64,000 nt of DNA from the NCBI GenBank assembly GCA_963736855.1, contig CAVTQK010000006.1:79328-143327 (forward strand), given 5' to 3'. The stretch comes from an uncultured delta proteobacterium. Its GTDB lineage: Bacteria; Desulfobacterota; Desulfobacteria; Desulfobacterales; UBA2156. A model generated the notes under the pieces. That model searched no databases. It was given only the letters and a program-made list of their open reading frames with translations, and had not been told where the DNA came from. Of this stretch, positions 10,000-34,429 are shown one piece after another; the stretch's first letter is position 1; each line of letters opens with the position of its first letter. A program made the translations under genes and the position numbers.

Positions 10000-10854
10000 A
10001 TGGGACGCATGAGACGATATTTTATTCTGCTGAATCTGATCGGTGTCACCGTCGCCGTCTTTTTCGTCGTCAAGGTCTTTTACATCTGGGTCACCCAAGA
10101 CCTGACCGTCATCTCCTCACCACGGGGATATTCCGAAACAACAATGGATGTTGAAAAAACATCTCCGCCGCCATCCGATTATCAAAGCATTCTCAAACGC
10201 AACCTTTTTAAAACGGTTTCAAAGGGTATCCCCGGTTCCGGCTCCACCGCAACACCCATCGGGGCGCCCCTACCCATCCAGCTGAATGTGAAACTCTGGG
10301 GGACGGTCACATTTTCAGACGGCAAGGGATTTGCCGTCATCGAAGATGTCCCGGCAAGAAGGCAGGACCTTTTCACAGCGGGAAAAGCAATTCAAAATGC
10401 AACGCTCAAGGAGATCCTGAGGGGCCGGGTGATCTTGAGCGTCAACGGCAGAGACCAAGTTCTCAACATGGAAGATCCGAAAAGCCTTCCGGAAAGGGTG
10501 CAGCCGATTCCCGCATCCGCCCCCCAAAGTACGTCTCAACAAATCGCCCTTTCCCGGCTGCAAATCGATGATGCCGTTCAGAACATCAACGAGCTCATGA
10601 CACAGATCAAGATTCGACCCCATTTCCTGGACGGAAGGCCCGATGGCATTGTCGTAGGTGCAATTGTACCGGACTCCATCTTCAGCAGAATGGGTCTTCA
10701 AAACGGCGACATCATCGCGGGTATCAACGGAGAAAAAATTTTATCGGTGGATGATGCCCTCAAATTGTATCAGGGCATCAAATCCGGAAGCAGCGTGAAC
10801 ATCGAACTCAAGCGGGCGGGGAAAACGGAAACTCTGATGTACCAGATTGAATAG
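10000..10854 (+). CDS. gspC: T2SS protein GspC-like with C-terminal PDZ domain
   Basis: N-terminal TM segment, then a PDZ-like C-terminus (SIFSRMGLQNGDIIAGINGEKILSVDDALKLYQGIKSGSSVNIELKRAG). It lies immediately upstream of the secretin. Confidence 0.6.
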   Translation: MGRMRRYFILLNLIGVTVAVFFVVKVFYIWVTQDLTVISSPRGYSETTMDVEKTSPPPSDYQSILKRNLFKTVSKGIPGSGSTATPIGAPLPIQLNVKLWGTVTFSDGKGFAVIEDVPARRQDLFTAGKAIQNATLKEILRGRVILSVNGRDQVLNMEDPKSLPERVQPIPASAPQSTSQQIALSRLQIDDAVQNINELMTQIKIRPHFLDGRPDGIVVGAIVPDSIFSRMGLQNGDIIAGINGEKILSVDDALKLYQGIKSGSSVNIELKRAGKTETLMYQIE

Positions 10855-19243: not shown

Positions 19244-20897
19244 TAATAAAAGGGAGAATCACCGGACGGCGCTGGATTGCAAAATAGAAGTATTGCCTGA
19301 GCGCCGACTGAATTTTCGTGCGGATCTTTTCGATCCGATTTGGGATTTCAGGGGGAATTTCCTCGACGATTTCTAATATCACACACTTGGCGTCCTCCAG
19401 AAGATAGCCGGATTCGGTTTCAAAAATAAAGCCCCGCGACACCACATCCGGACCATAGGCTATAATACCGGTCTCCTCGTCAAAGGCCATATTCACCACG
19501 ACCAGGCCGTCTTCCGACAAGAGACGCCGCTCCTTGAGAACACTTCTTCCCACATCTCCGATCCCCTTTCCATCCACCAGAACCCGCCCTGTAAAAACCC
19601 GATCACGGATTCTCCCTCCCTTCGAATCGAATTCGATGATTTGACCGTTCTCCGCCAAAAGCACCCGTTCTTTGGGTATGCCGACTTTTTCAGCCAATCG
19701 TGCATGCAGCGCCAAATGACGGTATTCTCCGTGAACCGGAATGAAATATTTCGGCCGGGTCAGGGCGATCATCAATTTCAATTCTTCCCGAAAGGCGTGA
19801 CCGCTGGCATGGATATTGGATATTTTCTCATAAATAACGTCTGCCTCCAGGCGGCAGAGCTTGTTGATGATATTGCCGATGGCTCTTTCATTTCCCGGAA
19901 TAAACTTGGATGAAAGAATAACCATGTCCCCTCTTTTGATAGCAACCCACTTATGGGTCTTGGTGGCCATGCGTGCCAGAGAAGACATGGGTTCCCCCTG
20001 GCTCCCCGTGGTGATCAAAAGGAGCTCTTCATCCGGGAACTCCCCAATCCGACTGATGTCGATCTGCATCTGTTCGGGAATATCGATTAAACCCAGCTCC
20101 TTGGCGATATTGACGGTGGTTTCGATGCTTTTTCCGTCTAGTACCACCTTTCGACCCTGGGCTTTGGCGATCTCCACAATCTTCCCGATACGGGTAATGT
20201 TGGAAGCAAAAAGAGAGATGATCACGCGCCCCTTGTGACTGTGTGTAACCTGTGACAGGGTTTCGGCGATTTCTTCGGCGGATACGGTATGCCCTTCCCT
20301 TTCCACATTGGTGGAATCGGATAGCAGGGCTAAAACCCCTTCATCGCCGCATCGAGCAAAATGATTCACGTCTGTGGTCATTCCCCCCGAAGCCGCATGG
20401 TTGATATTGAAATCCCCGGTATGCACCACCAATCCGTAGGGAGTGTGGATCGCCACGCCGACGCCGCCGACCACACTATGTCCCACCCGGATAAATTCAA
20501 GTTCCAGCTTTCCGATTTTCAGAAGCTCTCCGGGAGAGATATCATGCAGATCACAGGAAGACAGTATTCCGTATTCTTCGAGTTTGCGTCTCACAACCCC
20601 CAAGGTGAAGGGCGTCCCGAAAACCGGAGCATGAATATCTTTGAGCAGGTAGGGGAGTGCGCCGATGTGATCCTCGTGGGCATGGGTCAAGACAATGCCG
20701 GAAAGACGGGGCCCCGCCTTTTTCAGATAGGTCATGTCGGGGATCACTAAATCGACCCCGAGCATATATTCCTCCGGAAACATGAGACCGGCGTCGATGA
20801 CGAAAAGCGTATCTTGATACTGGATCGCCATCATATTCAGGCCTATTTCTCCCAGGCCGCCCAGAGGTATCAGTTTGAGCACCTCACGTCCCTCCAT
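19233..20897 (-). CDS. rnj: Ribonuclease J (metallo-beta-lactamase/beta-CASP)
   Basis: LKLIPLGGLGEIGLNMM, the HAHEDHIGALPYL metal motif, and 554 aa with an RNase J type C-terminal domain. Confidence 0.85.
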   Translation of the reverse strand: MEGREVLKLIPLGGLGEIGLNMMAIQYQDTLFVIDAGLMFPEEYMLGVDLVIPDMTYLKKAGPRLSGIVLTHAHEDHIGALPYLLKDIHAPVFGTPFTLGVVRRKLEEYGILSSCDLHDISPGELLKIGKLELEFIRVGHSVVGGVGVAIHTPYGLVVHTGDFNINHAASGGMTTDVNHFARCGDEGVLALLSDSTNVEREGHTVSAEEIAETLSQVTHSHKGRVIISLFASNITRIGKIVEIAKAQGRKVVLDGKSIETTVNIAKELGLIDIPEQMQIDISRIGEFPDEELLLITTGSQGEPMSSLARMATKTHKWVAIKRGDMVILSSKFIPGNERAIGNIINKLCRLEADVIYEKISNIHASGHAFREELKLMIALTRPKYFIPVHGEYRHLALHARLAEKVGIPKERVLLAENGQIIEFDSKGGRIRDRVFTGRVLVDGKGIGDVGRSVLKERRLLSEDGLVVVNMAFDEETGIIAYGPDVVSRGFIFETESGYLLEDAKCVILEIVEEIPPEIPNRIEKIRTKIQSALRQYFYFAIQRRPVILPFIIEV

Positions 20898-21619
20898 GAG
20901 TCCGACTCAAAGGAATTTTTCATAATGTCCCGTATCTTTTCCAGCAGGGCATCCTTATTTTTCCTGCTGAAATTTCGGGTCTCAACAGGGGACAGCACTT
21001 GAAGAACCACGCTTCCGGGCCGGATCGTCAACCCCTCTTTGGACATAATGGACCAAGTACCGAACAAAATAACAGGAACGATGGGAACTCCGGCTTCCGT
21101 TGCCAGGACGAAGCCGCCCTTCTTGAACGGACTTATTCGGCCGTCACGACTCCTTGTCCCTTCGGGAAATATGAGCACCGACGCACCATCCCGGATGGTT
21201 TGAGCTGCCTGCTTCAGGCTTAAAAAAGCACTCTTACGATCAGATCGATCGATGCTGATGTAACCTGCCTTTCGCATGGCCCGGCCGAAAACAGGGATCT
21301 TGAAAAGCTCGGCCTTTGCCAGCCACCGGAACTGAACCTTGAGATGGGCCAGCAGAACCGGGATGTCGAAATTGCTCTGATGATTGGCCATGAAGATATA
21401 GCTTTTGTTTGGGTCGATATTAGAAAAACCCTCCACCTGAACTCGAATCCGGCTGATGAGAAGGATGCACCTGCCCCAAATTCTGGCGATCTTATGACTG
21501 CTTTTATCCGGACTTCCGAAAAAGGAGACGATCACTGCCATGGTACCAAAAAAAGCGGTCAAGAAGACGACAACCGCTATGATGCAAAATGTCCGAACCA
21601 TATCTGCTGCGCGTTTCAC
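20870..21619 (-). CDS. plsC: 1-acyl-sn-glycerol-3-phosphate acyltransferase
   Basis: NHQSNFDIPV (HX4D-type block) and FPEGTRSRDG motifs, with an N-terminal TM segment. Confidence 0.85.
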   Translation of the reverse strand: MKRAADMVRTFCIIAVVVFLTAFFGTMAVIVSFFGSPDKSSHKIARIWGRCILLISRIRVQVEGFSNIDPNKSYIFMANHQSNFDIPVLLAHLKVQFRWLAKAELFKIPVFGRAMRKAGYISIDRSDRKSAFLSLKQAAQTIRDGASVLIFPEGTRSRDGRISPFKKGGFVLATEAGVPIVPVILFGTWSIMSKEGLTIRPGSVVLQVLSPVETRNFSRKNKDALLEKIRDIMKNSFESDSWRDVRCSN

Positions 21620-21734
21620 GATGCTTTCCCTTTGTGTTGACCCTGCTGTTGCAAAAGCCGAGGATGCCCCGGATCCAAGGCGTCCAAGGGCGAAGCCGTA
21701 GTATTTTACTGGGAGCCCTTGGTAACGAAGGAGA

Positions 21735-21900
21735 CGGGGCGTTCTCGGCTTTCCCTCCGGGTAAAAAACATGACAAATTTTTTATTCGTTTTAGAAGTCA
21801 CTAAAAGTTTATTCGCGAACCATGCCTAAACGTATTCAAATGCCCTGTTATCATTCTTTTTTTCTATTCCTTGTCATGTTTTTATGCAACTGCAGGGTTG
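21735..21900 (-). repeat. Copy 1 of a ~165-bp intergenic repeat (upstream of plsC)
   Basis: About 90 percent identical by eye to 31764-31860 plus 32052-32125 on the opposite strand. It ends with ATGTTTTTTACCC(G/A)GAGGGAAAGCC. Confidence 0.8.
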
Positions 21901-21911
21901 ATTTCCGGAGT

Positions 21912-22244
21912 TTAGGTCTGGATTCCCAACTCATCAAAAATCGCATCGATGAACCGAATGAGCCAGTTGCGCTGGGTTTCGGTAGCATACCCCATACAGG
22001 CGCAGTGTACCCGTTGATGGGTACGGATCAGCAATTCGCAGGCCAACCGGTCTTTGTGCATCTCAAAAGCGAAGTAAAACGGCTGGCATGCTTGATGTTC
22101 GCACTGAAGATCAGTGAGGATCCCCGGTTCAAGGGAAATCCAGTATATGTTTTCCAAACCGCCGAGGGTGTAATGTTCATCAAGATACGCTTTGATTTTT
22201 TCGTGGTCCTGCTCGCGGAGTTCATCGATGACATATTGCTTCAT
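21912..22244 (-). CDS. Conserved-looking hypothetical protein with Cys/His clusters
   Basis: 110-aa ORF in a good coding context, with CEHQAC and HCAC clusters. I do not recognise a family. Confidence 0.4.
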   Translation of the reverse strand: MKQYVIDELREQDHEKIKAYLDEHYTLGGLENIYWISLEPGILTDLQCEHQACQPFYFAFEMHKDRLACELLIRTHQRVHCACMGYATETQRNWLIRFIDAIFDELGIQT

Positions 22245-22351: not shown

Positions 22352-22363
22352 AAAAAAAATGAG

Positions 22364-22456
22364 ATCCACCACAGGGGCGGCGAAGCAAGCCTGAGAAGGT
22401 ACCCTTTGAACCTGATCCGGGTAATGCCGGCGTAGGGATGAGATGCGGTGGAGATT
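22364..22456 (+). ncRNA. TPP (THI-box) riboswitch
   Basis: P1 arms tccaccac / gcggtgga enclose GGGGCG...CTGAGAAGGTACCCTTTGAACCTGATCCGGGTAATGCCGGCGTAGGGA, matching the TPP aptamer consensus. It sits directly upstream of thiM-thiE-thiL. Confidence 0.9.
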
Positions 22457-22470
22457 TTCAGAGGGGACCA

Positions 22471-22508
22471 AGGGTTGTTTTTGCCAAAAAAACAACCCTT
22501 TTTTTATT
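22471..22508 (+). terminator. Riboswitch expression platform: intrinsic terminator hairpin plus T-run
   Basis: agggttgttttt-gcc-aaaaaaacaaccct followed by tttttttatt. Confidence 0.7.
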
Positions 22509-22523
22509 CCAAAGGAGATGTCC

Positions 22524-23330
22524 ATGACACATTTTTCCAGCCAGGCTGCTTTAAATCTCCGGATGATTCGGGACACGAGACCGCTGATCCACAACATCAC
22601 CAACTATGTGGTCATGAACTATACAGCCAACGCCCTTTTGTGCGCCGGGGCCTCTCCCGTGATGGCTCATGCCGCGGGAGAGGTGGAAGACATGGTCTCC
22701 CTGTCGAAAGCCCTGGTCCTCAACATCGGGACCCTCACCGATGATTGGGTCGCCTCGATGATCCAGGCTGGAAAGCGTGCCAATGTGTTAAATATACCAG
22801 TGATCCTGGATCCTGTAGGATCGGGGGCCACTGCATTGCGAACCCGTTCGGCCAAGCGGATCCTCGAGCAGACTTCCGTCAAGGTGCTGCGGGGAAACGC
22901 ATCGGAAATTCTGTCACTGAGAAGTGCTGACTCGAAAACCAAGGGCGTCGATTCGATCCATTCCGTTGAAGACGCCGCCGATATAGCCGGGACTCTTGCC
23001 CGGGAATTGAAAACCACCCTGGCCATCACGGGAGCCGTGGACATGGTCACTGACGGAAAACAGAAGGTTCGAGTCGAAAACGGACATCCCCTGATGGGAA
23101 AAGTCACGGGAACCGGATGCACGGCAACGGCAATCATCGGCGCTTTTCTGGCCGTAGACGGCGATCCGGTCATCGCAGCCTCAACCGCCCTGGCCTTTTT
23201 CGGCCTGGCCGGAGAGTACGCCGCTAAAAAAGCTCAATCTCCGGGGAGTTTCATGATCGCACTTCTGGACGCCCTGTATGACATTTCACCCGATGAACTC
23301 GAAAAAGAGTGCCGGATCCGAGAAGCGTAA
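22524..23330 (+). CDS. thiM: Hydroxyethylthiazole kinase
   Basis: LIHNITNYVVMNYTANALLCAGASPVMAHA motif. ORF 22443 extends over the riboswitch; ATG 22524 has GGAG 6 nt upstream. Confidence 0.85.
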   Translation: MTHFSSQAALNLRMIRDTRPLIHNITNYVVMNYTANALLCAGASPVMAHAAGEVEDMVSLSKALVLNIGTLTDDWVASMIQAGKRANVLNIPVILDPVGSGATALRTRSAKRILEQTSVKVLRGNASEILSLRSADSKTKGVDSIHSVEDAADIAGTLARELKTTLAITGAVDMVTDGKQKVRVENGHPLMGKVTGTGCTATAIIGAFLAVDGDPVIAASTALAFFGLAGEYAAKKAQSPGSFMIALLDALYDISPDELEKECRIREA

Positions 23331-31558: not shown

Positions 31559-31763
31559 CTGCTTATCCCTGAAACGCATCTCAACCGGAAATGTCGCTTG
31601 CAAACAGCGGCACCAAACTTTATAAAATCCGAAAGGCGAGCGTAAAACCCCGGTCTATAAAAAGGCCATTCAACTTCATATTGACTTTTAACATCGATTC
31701 GGATCTATACATAAAACTTCATTCGCGTTCAAGAAAGTTATCCATAACAGGCCGAAGCCCTCT

Positions 31764-31860
31764 AAACCCTGAAGTTGCATAAAAAACATGACGGGGAATA
31801 GAAAAAAAGAATGATAACAGAGCATTTGAATACGTTTAGGTATGGTTCTCGAATAAACTT
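31764..31860 (+). repeat. Copy 2 (left part) of the ~165-bp intergenic repeat, split by a MITE
   Basis: Matches the reverse complement of 21805-21900 at about 90 percent by eye. Confidence 0.8.
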
Positions 31861-32051
31861 GGATGGCTTCGTAAAAAGGTTTTATGAGCGCCATCCAAGT
31901 CTTTTCGGAAAAAGAGAGGCAAAGGGTTGAGCGTTAAAAATCTCAAGCTGTTTGAGGCACTTGTGCCGAGTTCTTGAGATTTAGCGAAACCCTTTGGATC
32001 TTCCGAAAAGAATTGCGGCGCGAGAAAAATCGGCCTTTTTACGATTTCATC
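31861..32051. mobile_element. 191-bp MITE-like insertion with imperfect terminal inverted repeats and a 5-bp AACTT target duplication
   Basis: The left end GGATGGCTTCGTAAAAAGG pairs with the reverse complement of the right end, GATGAAATCGTAAAAAGGCC. AACTT occurs at 31856-31860 and 32052-32056. The uninterrupted paralog at 21795-21815 reads ...AATAAACTTTTAGTGAC... and acts as an empty site. The interior folds into a long hairpin (31898-32013). Confidence 0.75.
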
Positions 32052-32125
32052 AACTTTTGGTGACTTCTAAAACAAATAAAAAATTTGTCATGTTTTTTAC
32101 CCAGAGGGAAAGCCAAGGATGCCAT
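32052..32125 (+). repeat. Copy 2 (right part) of the ~165-bp intergenic repeat, includes the lptD start codon
   Basis: Matches the reverse complement of 21735-21809. It contains ATGTTTTTTACCCAGAGGGAAAGCC. Confidence 0.75.
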
Positions 32126-34429
32126 GTCGATCCTCTCTGGCGAGGGAAATTGGCTCTCTTTCTCTCCCTTTTTGTTGTCCTTTTAGGGATGGCGCTTTCC
32201 GGAATGTCCCATGCCGCATCTCGGTCCGAGAATGTCTTTGGATCCACTACCGCCGATGCAAGCTCGCCCTGGCAGGTCACGGCCGATTCCCTGTTTTATG
32301 ACCAAGAAGCCGACCATTACGTCGCCAAGGGACATGTCGTCGTCGTCAAAAAGAGGATGCGCCTCAGCGGCGACTTCGTTCAGCTGAATCACAAAACGGG
32401 CCAGGCTCTTGCCATCGGAAACGCCGTCTTGTCCGATGGAGAGGACATCCTCACCGGGGAGCGCATCCGCTTCGACCTGAAAAATGAAACCGGAAGCGCC
32501 TATCACGGCACCGTCTTTTTAAAACAAAACCATTTTTATATCCAGGGGGATAAGATACAAAAGACCGGCGAAAAGACTTATAGTGCCCAATCGGCAAGCA
32601 TTTCCACCTGTGACGGTGAGAACCCGGCCTGGAGGGTCACGGCCCGAAATGTCTCTGTGGCGCTGGAAGGATACGGCTCCGCCACACACAGTACTCTGTG
32701 GCTAAAAAAGGTGCCGGTGCTTTATACTCCATACTTTGTCTTCCCCGCCAAAACCAAACGCCAGTCCGGATTTCTTCCCCCTCGCCTGGGGGTCTCCGAC
32801 CGGAAGGGAACCGAATATGAACAGCCCTATTTCTGGGCCATCAATGATAATTCGGATGCCACACTCTACTTAGACCATATGGATCGACGGGGAGAAAAAG
32901 TCGGGCTTGAATACCGCTACGTCCTGAGTCGCCTTTCCAAAGGTGCCCTCATGGGAGATTTCCTCAATGATCGTCAGTTGGACGACGGAACCGGCGATTC
33001 AAGCGATCGCTGGGGTTACGAGGACGACAAGTACTTAAGACCCAACCACGACCGTTATTGGTTCAGGATGAAACACGACCAGGTCCTTCCGTGGGACTTT
33101 TTCGCCAAACTCGATCTCGACATTGTCTCGGACCAGGATTATTTGGTGGAATTCAAAAGCGGCTACAATGGCTTCGATGAAACCAATCAGTATTTTGAAA
33201 CCGTCTTCGGCAGGGGCGTGGACGATTATACGGACACCACCCGATTGAACCGCCTGAACCTGAATCGGGCTTGGAACCGAAGCAGCCTCAACATCGAAGG
33301 CCGATGGTATGACAATGTTCTTTTCCGCAGGCACAGCGATCCGGACGACTTAGATAAGACCCTTCAGCGCCTCCCGTTCGTCGAATACGACATTTCCAAA
33401 GGGCGGTTACTAGATACCCCATTTTATTACGATATGTCCTCAGATTATGTCCGTTACTACCGTAAAGACGGGCTGCGGGGGCACCGTGTGGATGTTTATC
33501 CGAAGGCGTATCTACCCGTAAAACTAAACAATTATCTGTCCCTGGAACCTTTTATGGGGCTTCGGGAAACATTCTGGCATATCGACCAGTACGAAACCGA
33601 TAAGGAAGATCAGGACCGCACCCAGCTCAGAGACCTCTATGACGCAGGCGTCAATCTCAGCACGGAATTGTATCGGATTTACAACACCGGAGGGAAAACC
33701 CTCGATAAGATCCGCCACAGCATCCTCCCAAAGATCACCTATCGCTATCTACCGGAAAAAGAACAGGATCAATACCCCAAATTCGACGACGTCGACCGGA
33801 TCGGAAGAGTCAACCAGGTCGGCTACTCGCTGACGAACACGTTCACCTCAAGGTCCCTCAAGAAAAAACCGGACACGGAAAATCCTCAATATATATACCG
33901 GGAATTCGCAAGACTCGGCGTCAGTCAGAGCTACAATATCTATGAAGCCACAGACGAGGACATTGAAGAGAAAGAACCGTTTTCCAACATTAATGGTCGG
34001 CTGGAACTCAGACCCATGGATCATATATCCGTTGACGCCGATGCCCAGTGGTCCGTTTACGAACATGACTGGATGTCTTATAATGCTCAGTGTAAGGCCT
34101 CGGATTATCGAGGGGACAGCTTCCATGTCGAATATCGTTACCGGCGGGATTCAGCCGAAGGTAAATCGAACGGGAAGGAGTCCATTTATACCCGGCTTTA
34201 TGCCAACCTTTTTGGGGGTTTCTCCGCTTTTTGGGAATATGAACGCAACCTGTACGACAAAGAGGATATCAAAACCGGAATCGGGGTGATCTATAAAGCC
34301 CAATGCTGGTCCATCGATTTTCGATATACTGACGAATTCGAAGACCGGGCCTACTCCGTAATGATTAACCTTTACGGCCTCGGCGGCTTCGGAAGCAGCA
34401 TTGGAACCGAAAAACAAGAAACCGAATGA
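32090..34429 (+). CDS. lptD: LPS-assembly outer-membrane protein LptD (OstA family)
   Basis: Signal peptide RGKLALFLSLFVVLLGMALSGMSHA. An OstA N-domain (ADSLFYDQEADHYVAKGHVVV) and a large beta-barrel. ORF-track start 31994 lies inside the MITE, so ATG 32090 is preferred. Confidence 0.8.
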   Translation: MFFTQRESQGCHVDPLWRGKLALFLSLFVVLLGMALSGMSHAASRSENVFGSTTADASSPWQVTADSLFYDQEADHYVAKGHVVVVKKRMRLSGDFVQLNHKTGQALAIGNAVLSDGEDILTGERIRFDLKNETGSAYHGTVFLKQNHFYIQGDKIQKTGEKTYSAQSASISTCDGENPAWRVTARNVSVALEGYGSATHSTLWLKKVPVLYTPYFVFPAKTKRQSGFLPPRLGVSDRKGTEYEQPYFWAINDNSDATLYLDHMDRRGEKVGLEYRYVLSRLSKGALMGDFLNDRQLDDGTGDSSDRWGYEDDKYLRPNHDRYWFRMKHDQVLPWDFFAKLDLDIVSDQDYLVEFKSGYNGFDETNQYFETVFGRGVDDYTDTTRLNRLNLNRAWNRSSLNIEGRWYDNVLFRRHSDPDDLDKTLQRLPFVEYDISKGRLLDTPFYYDMSSDYVRYYRKDGLRGHRVDVYPKAYLPVKLNNYLSLEPFMGLRETFWHIDQYETDKEDQDRTQLRDLYDAGVNLSTELYRIYNTGGKTLDKIRHSILPKITYRYLPEKEQDQYPKFDDVDRIGRVNQVGYSLTNTFTSRSLKKKPDTENPQYIYREFARLGVSQSYNIYEATDEDIEEKEPFSNINGRLELRPMDHISVDADAQWSVYEHDWMSYNAQCKASDYRGDSFHVEYRYRRDSAEGKSNGKESIYTRLYANLFGGFSAFWEYERNLYDKEDIKTGIGVIYKAQCWSIDFRYTDEFEDRAYSVMINLYGLGGFGSSIGTEKQETE

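Follow-up and report, generated by a model that had tools for sequence, protein, structure and literature searches.

The Correia elements of Neisseria duplicate the dinucleotide TA at their insertion sites, and promoters, IHF sites and processing by RNase III have been demonstrated in them. The Correia elements, the enterobacterial ERIC sequences and the 'Chunjie' elements of Geobacter resemble the repeat described here in being short, palindromic, high-copy and intergenic MITEs (non-autonomous DNA transposons), a likeness that implies no sequence relationship. Such elements are likewise often co-transcribed with their neighbours, lie inside operons without destroying them, and are able to form long RNA hairpins. 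Among autonomous elements, insertion sequences of the IS1380 family, as catalogued in ISfinder, have CC ends and produce duplications of 4-5 bp, and IS30 and IS911 have been reported to insert next to sequences resembling their own ends.

The DNA stretch analyzed here (64,000 nt, hereafter the window) samples its genome over 64 kb. The original prediction had placed a common module of about 165 bp, roughly 90% identical between its two copies, in front of two envelope genes, plsC and lptD. A repeat search in the window bears out this similarity: the minus strand at 21733-21900, on the plsC side, is homologous to the plus strand at 31767-31860 and 32049-32128, on the lptD side, in the form of two inverted pairs (21805-21883 against 31782-31860, 79 nt, 94% identity; and 21733-21812 against 32049-32128, 80 nt, 89% identity). 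Two strings taken from it, a 19-mer and a 24-mer, occur exactly twice each in the window, against shuffle expectations of 0.01 and 0.00, respectively. The neighbouring genes are also those predicted, i.e. a plsC-type PF01553 acyltransferase (20870-21619, minus strand) and LptD (about 32150-34429, plus strand), the break in the lptD copy between 31860 and 32052 is real, and the module end, AAAAAATTTGTC-ATG-TTTTTTACCC(G/A)GAGGGAAAGCC, is correct on reading both copies. Taken as a whole, these data are best explained, with high confidence, by two copies of one MITE lying in front of two genes, whose pairing as envelope genes is coincidental.

Alignment of copies from two MAGs defines a full unit of 258 bp that begins CCCTGCAGTTGCATAAAAAACATGAC and finishes GGCTTTTGCAACAACAGGG. 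Read from left to right, the ends of the MITE are CCCTGCAGTTGCAT...TTGCAACAACAGGG, and the module common to plsC and lptD makes up its left two-thirds. All complete copies have terminal inverted repeats, CCCTGCAGTTGCA on the left and CCCTGTTGTTGCA (inverted) on the right, which are imperfect, CCCTG(CA/TT)GTTGCA, and a 4-bp direct duplication flanks every complete copy in the first set examined. On the plsC side, an nhmmer profile of full copies (positions 1-258, 310 bits) delimits a complete copy of 257 bp, CCCTGCAGTTGCAT...TTGCAACAGCAGGG, at 21641-21897 on the minus strand, where sequence reading places a left and a right target duplication, both TCAA, at 21898-21901 and 21637-21640. The predicted 165-bp module thus corresponds to a real similarity, but not to a unit: at plsC the element continues past 21735 to 21641, and the 165 bp represent positions 1 to ~169 of 258.

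Further copies are numerous. A scan of one genome per species with a 19-mer from the module returned 13 loci in the MAG "Deltaproteobacteria bacterium RBG_13_49_15" and six in the MAG "Desulfobacterales bacterium CG23_combo 52_9" (CG23 MAG), plus two unrelated loci that have only the 19-mer in common (L009 and L015; L-numbers denote collected loci). At least 120 metagenome stretches matched the 19-nt left terminus, and nhmmer over all collected loci gave at least 52 full-length MITE copies, at least 25 internal partial hits and at least 17 hits cut by contig ends, while a blastn search against PLSDB plasmids gave no match to the MITE. Among the matches listed, distinct flanks define 43 insertion sites, with both flanks readable in 42; a perfect 4-bp target duplication of consensus TNNA is present at 33 of these 42 distinct sites (TAAA 12, TTAA 8, TTTA 7, TCAA 5, TCTA 3, and others). 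The element has no coding capacity, its sole internal ORF being variable among copies. With its 258 bp, inverted termini, 4-bp duplication, dispersed copies and empty sites (see below), it is a MITE, and the possibility of a dispersed repeat family, which the original prediction had also raised, proves correct, with many copies at unrelated locations in related bacteria and metagenomes.

The genes beside other copies have no common function and no link to the envelope. They code for an FMN reductase fused to a low-molecular-weight phosphatase, an MFS transporter, a GNAT acetyltransferase, an FAA hydrolase, a GlgB-like enzyme, an RlpA-like protein, a PMT_2 glycosyltransferase, a BadF/BcrA-type ATPase, a PEP-utilising enzyme and a methyltransferase. 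Moreover, only about half of the copies checked have a downstream gene that points the same way as the MITE; elsewhere, about half face a convergent one. Many copies at unrelated locations are the outcome that the original prediction had itself named as indicating a generic repeat. The search for further copies therefore speaks against the promoter reading, and a duplicated promoter/leader that would co-regulate phospholipid and LPS assembly is unsupported, as copies elsewhere adjoin unrelated genes and promoter scans remain at chance level. Because copies are scattered beside unrelated genes in related bacteria, the module is an ordinary mobile repeat and no dedicated regulator of envelope genes, and the orientation of both window copies toward such genes is coincidental.

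At six left junctions (L001, L002, L007, L012, L018 and L021) the first three bases of the duplication are the stop codon of a co-oriented upstream gene with Pfam support. Targeting of stop codons was suggested by these 6 of the first 17 sites, and was dropped since they amount to 6 of 42 in the wider sample and the target is a symmetric TNNA; the stop codons at MITE junctions probably result from target preference plus selection against disruptive insertions.

The plsC copy separates a 110-aa ORF (stop at 21912-21914) from plsC, its right end falling 21 nt before the plsC GTG (21619-21617). Removal of the MITE and one TCAA leaves a spacer of 36 nt between the small ORF and plsC. Two syntenic relatives, identified via their LptD homologues, L142 (LptD 78% identical) and L143 (70%), keep the order thiM-thiE-thiL ... 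surE / lptD, and neither has any trace of the MITE, their lptD site being empty. In L143, plsC and the small ORF are present as well, with 7 nt between the stop of the ORF and the plsC ATG, so that the plsC site is empty too. As the spacer measures 7 nt in L143 and 36 nt in the window without the MITE, the element inserted into a short spacer between plsC and the small co-oriented ORF, and the two genes are probably co-transcribed as an operon. The small ORF is itself conserved (110-116 aa, no Pfam match) directly upstream of plsC, at 21912-22244 (minus strand) in the window and at 320-670 in L143. Divergent from this unit, a TPP riboswitch (Rfam RF00059, 61.6 bits; 22363-22456, plus strand) precedes thiM (22443-23330), thiE and a thiL-like gene, in an ordinary and known arrangement.

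A 21-codon uORF had been described about 90 nt before plsC. It does exist in the plsC copy, but only there, and is unconserved among 39 distinct MITE copies: its ATG context is absent in 15 of them, and the others have frames of 6 to 44 codons, with a modal length of 9.

In the CG23 MAG, two orthologous loci with 93-96% nucleotide identity to the window (L011 and L014) carry both MITE copies. Presence at orthologous loci implies that both insertions predate the split of the window and CG23 lineages, and their retention there implies that both copies are stably tolerated beside essential genes. The 10-kb segment between the inverted copies was also considered as a composite transposon or an invertible segment, and this was rejected because its gene order is conserved in relatives without the MITE.

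The lptD copy (31767-32128, plus strand) is incomplete and interrupted. Repeat search and profile place its left segment (MITE positions 1 to ~94) at 31767-31860, preceded by a typical target, TAAA (31763-31766), and its right segment (MITE positions ~95 to 169) at 32057-32128, the likeness to the element stopping near 32123-32128. The copy lacks its right hairpin arm and right inverted repeat as well as a second target duplication, and the profile match covers positions 1 to ~169 only. Because the right-hand duplication is absent, truncation is likelier than a distinct short variant of the MITE, which we disfavour.

The ATG of the module had been taken as the probable start of lptD. This codon (32090-32092, plus strand) lies inside the MITE and, by comparison with L014, is in frame with lptD in the window only; in L014 it is out of frame because the variant MITE segment there differs in length. 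At L014:4699-4740, as compared with 32090-32128 of the window, the internal arm ACCCAGAGGGAAAGCCAAGGATGCC of the lptD copy is replaced by ACCCTGCTGTTGCAAAAGCCGAGGATGCC, which is the exact inverse of the right end of the MITE at the plsC copy of the same genome. This arm swap puts the MITE ATG into another frame and has the appearance of template switching, or of conversion, inside a quasi-palindrome. A TTG at 32150-32152 (plus strand), preceded by GAGGG at 32142-32146, is the sole in-frame start upstream of the hydrophobic core of the signal peptide that keeps one position in the window and L014. In 11 of the 12 LptD homologues read, the called start lies 30-50 residues before the conserved motif W-(H/Q)-I-(T/S/N)-A-(D/E) (the N-terminus of P0002 is cut short), and several homologues open directly with a hydrophobic run (e.g. 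MAYLAFALVIL, MLLVLLLIM); the corresponding distance is 40 residues from TTG 32150 and 60 from ATG 32090. Given that its frame is kept in L014 and that the homologue N-termini fit it better, TTG 32150 appears the likelier start, and the assignment of the MITE ATG is probably wrong.

The interruption of the lptD copy is a second element of 191 bp (31861-32051, plus strand), recognized by its terminal inverted repeats, GGATGGCTTCGTAAAAAGG / CCTTTTTACGATTTCATC, by its folding as a single long hairpin (-45.7 kcal/mol as DNA, z = -6.1) and by its absence from L014, and flanked by AACTT at 31856-31860 and 32052-32056. Since the orthologous locus L014 lacks the insert, the nested insertion is a recent event in the lineage of the window. 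A second hairpin family with termini GATGGCTTCGTAAAAAG, variable interiors and lengths of 64-318 bp occurs at further loci (L018:6754-, L074:7506-7638, L109:3987-4119, L016:5500-5563, and L127:3437-3614 and 10020-10337). Its members sit at the same AAAC/TT site in three MITE copies with different flanks (window, L018 and L074/L109), i.e. three times independently, each time with another interior of the second element. The MITE sequence directly 3' of this site, TTGGTGACTTCTAAAAC, resembles the second element's own terminus, GATGGCTTCGTAAAAAG, and this terminus-like sequence may explain the repeated targeting. The repeated presence of the second element at AAAC/TT next to TTGGTGACTTCTAAAAC is akin to the targeting by IS30 and IS911; unlike in these systems, neither a parent insertion sequence nor a transposase for the second element was found in the collected loci, and the target duplication is ambiguous, AACTT flanking the element in the window and no duplication being evident at L016 or L127. 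Such repeated nesting at a single site, of which the locus offers a modest natural case, is its sole mildly unusual aspect. A more elaborate reading would have two layers of mobile hairpin DNA remodelling the lptD leader, with the MITE co-opted in the lptD and plsC leaders through promoter or RNA-processing effects, and the second element acting as a target-specific 'MITE-in-MITE' that recognizes the terminus-like MITE sequence; we consider this unlikely.

Concerning the mobility of the MITE, many of the metagenome matches listed for the 19-nt terminus continue without the MITE interior. One recurrent class has, after the terminus, a promoter-like sequence, a Shine-Dalgarno sequence and an ORF of 460-473 aa, which matches the NCBIfam equivalog NF033539 (IS1380 family transposase; 234.8 and 226.9 bits, cutoff 180) and Pfam PF13701 (1.3e-41). 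Among the matches listed there are six complete copies of this insertion sequence, of 1535-1539 bp (L040:4176-5714, L052:4103-5641, L093:2129-3666, L029:320-1854, L077:558-2096 and L121:11-1549), whose right end, (T/A)TGCAA(C/T)G(C/T)T(G/A)(G/A)GG, is an inverted version of the left end. A perfect duplication (TCAT) is present in one of the six, L040; the other five have unequal flanks of TNNA type, which could reflect recombination between copies. The candidate parent is like members of the IS1380 family such as ISEcp1 and ISPme1 in its size of about 1.5 kb, its single ORF, its inverted termini beginning with CC and, in one copy of the six (L040), its 4-bp duplication, whereas its transposase is less than 25% identical to those of plasmid-borne members.

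The MITE and the insertion sequence are identical in their first 19 nt and similar at their right terminus, and their interiors are unrelated beyond ~20 nt. Among the collected loci, the two are seen together in one genome only on contig L023, where the MITE match is weak (74 bits). Because the terminus is common and the target type similar, this IS1380-family insertion sequence, or a close relative, would most likely mobilise the MITE in trans, as far as can be judged from sequence. The left 30-45 nt, CCCTGCAGTTGCATAAAAAACATG(A/G)CAA..., also head other short elements with unrelated interiors (L026/L030, L048, L049, L057, L059, L080, L089, L091, L123, L126, L139, and others). As matches with these common 30-45 nt differ in their interiors, the left terminus heads a broader set of non-autonomous variants, which suggests a superfamily of mosaic elements under one left terminus. 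Loose recognition of the right end has been reported for IS1380-family transposases (PMC9330008), and the mosaic variants may be related to it.

Concerning a possible promoter, the module had been proposed to contain promoter-like hexamers, TTGCAT...TAGAAA, and a promoter role finds no support: consensus scans for promoters and terminators detected nothing above chance, the plsC copy having a single weak 9/12 site (ATGACA-16-AATGAT) and the lptD copy and its region no site, both within shuffle expectation. An alignment of the window, L014, L142 and L143 reveals a conserved intergenic block at 31671-31745 (plus strand), with TTGACT (31682-31687), an 18-nt spacer and TATACA (31706-31711), which lies upstream of the lptD MITE copy and is kept in L142 and L143, both without the MITE. 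This block probably represents the native surE/lptD promoter region, either direction being possible, and as it sits upstream of the MITE copy, the lptD leader is most likely longer by the MITE and its nested insert. The left 45 nt of most MITE copies contains TTGCAT-N16-TATAGA, conserved across variants with different interiors, and members of the IS1380 family carry outward promoters (PMC9330008); some promoter activity is therefore possible, and the conservation of this sequence could reflect it, beyond transposase binding.

Folded as RNA, the plsC copy reaches a predicted -93.6 kcal/mol, against -64.7 ± 4.5 for shuffled sequences (z = -6.5), as two hairpins that the terminal repeats close off. 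When 39 distinct MITE copies are aligned (mean identity 86%), the minor allele amounts to 2% in consensus-paired columns and 11.5% in unpaired ones; the low variation of paired columns fits conserved transposase-binding ends plus a palindromic core. Covariation, which had been put forward as a sign of RNA structure, is divided in the same alignment, with 14 compensatory and 19 broken cells, and these data are compatible with constraint at the DNA level as well as at the RNA level.

It might be argued that the two MITE copies have been co-opted, their left end serving as a sigma-70-type promoter (TTGCAT-N16/17-TATAGA/TAGAAA) and their hairpins as processing or attenuation sites, so as to give plsC and lptD a common regulatory input. 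The maintenance of both insertions at orthologous sites in a related MAG would agree with this, as would the left ~45 nt conserved even among variants with different interiors, the outward promoters known in the IS1380 family (PMC9330008), the strong predicted transcript fold (z = -6.5) and the lower variability of paired columns (2% vs 11.5%). However, transposase binding alone would yield conserved termini, and the scans stayed within chance, with nothing in the lptD copy and a single weak 9/12 site at plsC. The -10-like hexamer of both window copies is moreover the weaker GGAATAGAAA form. At the two genes themselves, the promoter-like block conserved in relatives without the MITE remains upstream of lptD, and plsC directly follows a co-oriented ORF, probably in one operon; elsewhere, about one copy in two faces a convergent downstream gene. 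We consequently find such a co-option decidedly improbable. Finally, a family of structured non-coding RNAs or cis-regulatory leaders (riboswitch-like or sRNA), with no transposon involved, would account for the strong predicted folding and for some compensatory cells (14 vs 19 broken), but it is largely refuted by the precise 4-bp target duplications with inverted termini and by the empty sites in related genomes, and is scarcely credible in view also of the terminus common to an insertion sequence, of assemblies that often break at copies (at least 17 nhmmer hits cut by contig ends), of copies that lie downstream of, convergent with or between unrelated genes, and of the lack of any Rfam match up to E = 10 at 21400-22100, the TPP riboswitch (22363-22456) being the only hit at gathering threshold in the whole window.

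We thus favour two insertions of one MITE, for which the following history can be proposed. The element would have been moved in trans by the transposase of the 1.54-kb IS1380-family insertion sequence with the same first 19 nt. One copy entered the ~36-nt spacer between the small ORF and plsC, and the other the surE-lptD intergenic region, downstream of the conserved promoter-like block. The lptD copy has probably lost its right third since then, and in the lineage of the window only it has gained the nested hairpin element. Because of these insertion places, i.e. the spacer between the small ORF and plsC and a position downstream of the promoter-like block, both copies are probably transcribed within the plsC and lptD leaders.

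These results have a direct consequence for annotation, in that neither a regulatory element nor an lptD start codon nor a uORF should be assigned to the predicted upstream module. They also define, for uncultivated bacteria of the Desulfobacterales type, a MITE family and its probable parent in the IS1380 family. Our literature search found no description of an IS1380-derived MITE family in these bacteria, and the family appears to be undescribed in the literature searched. Its presence explains contig breaks in the MAGs concerned, and its definition aids repeat masking and the calling of gene starts. As for the biology of these bacteria, the two insertions show that the leaders of essential envelope genes can accommodate hairpin-forming mobile DNA of up to ~360 bp.
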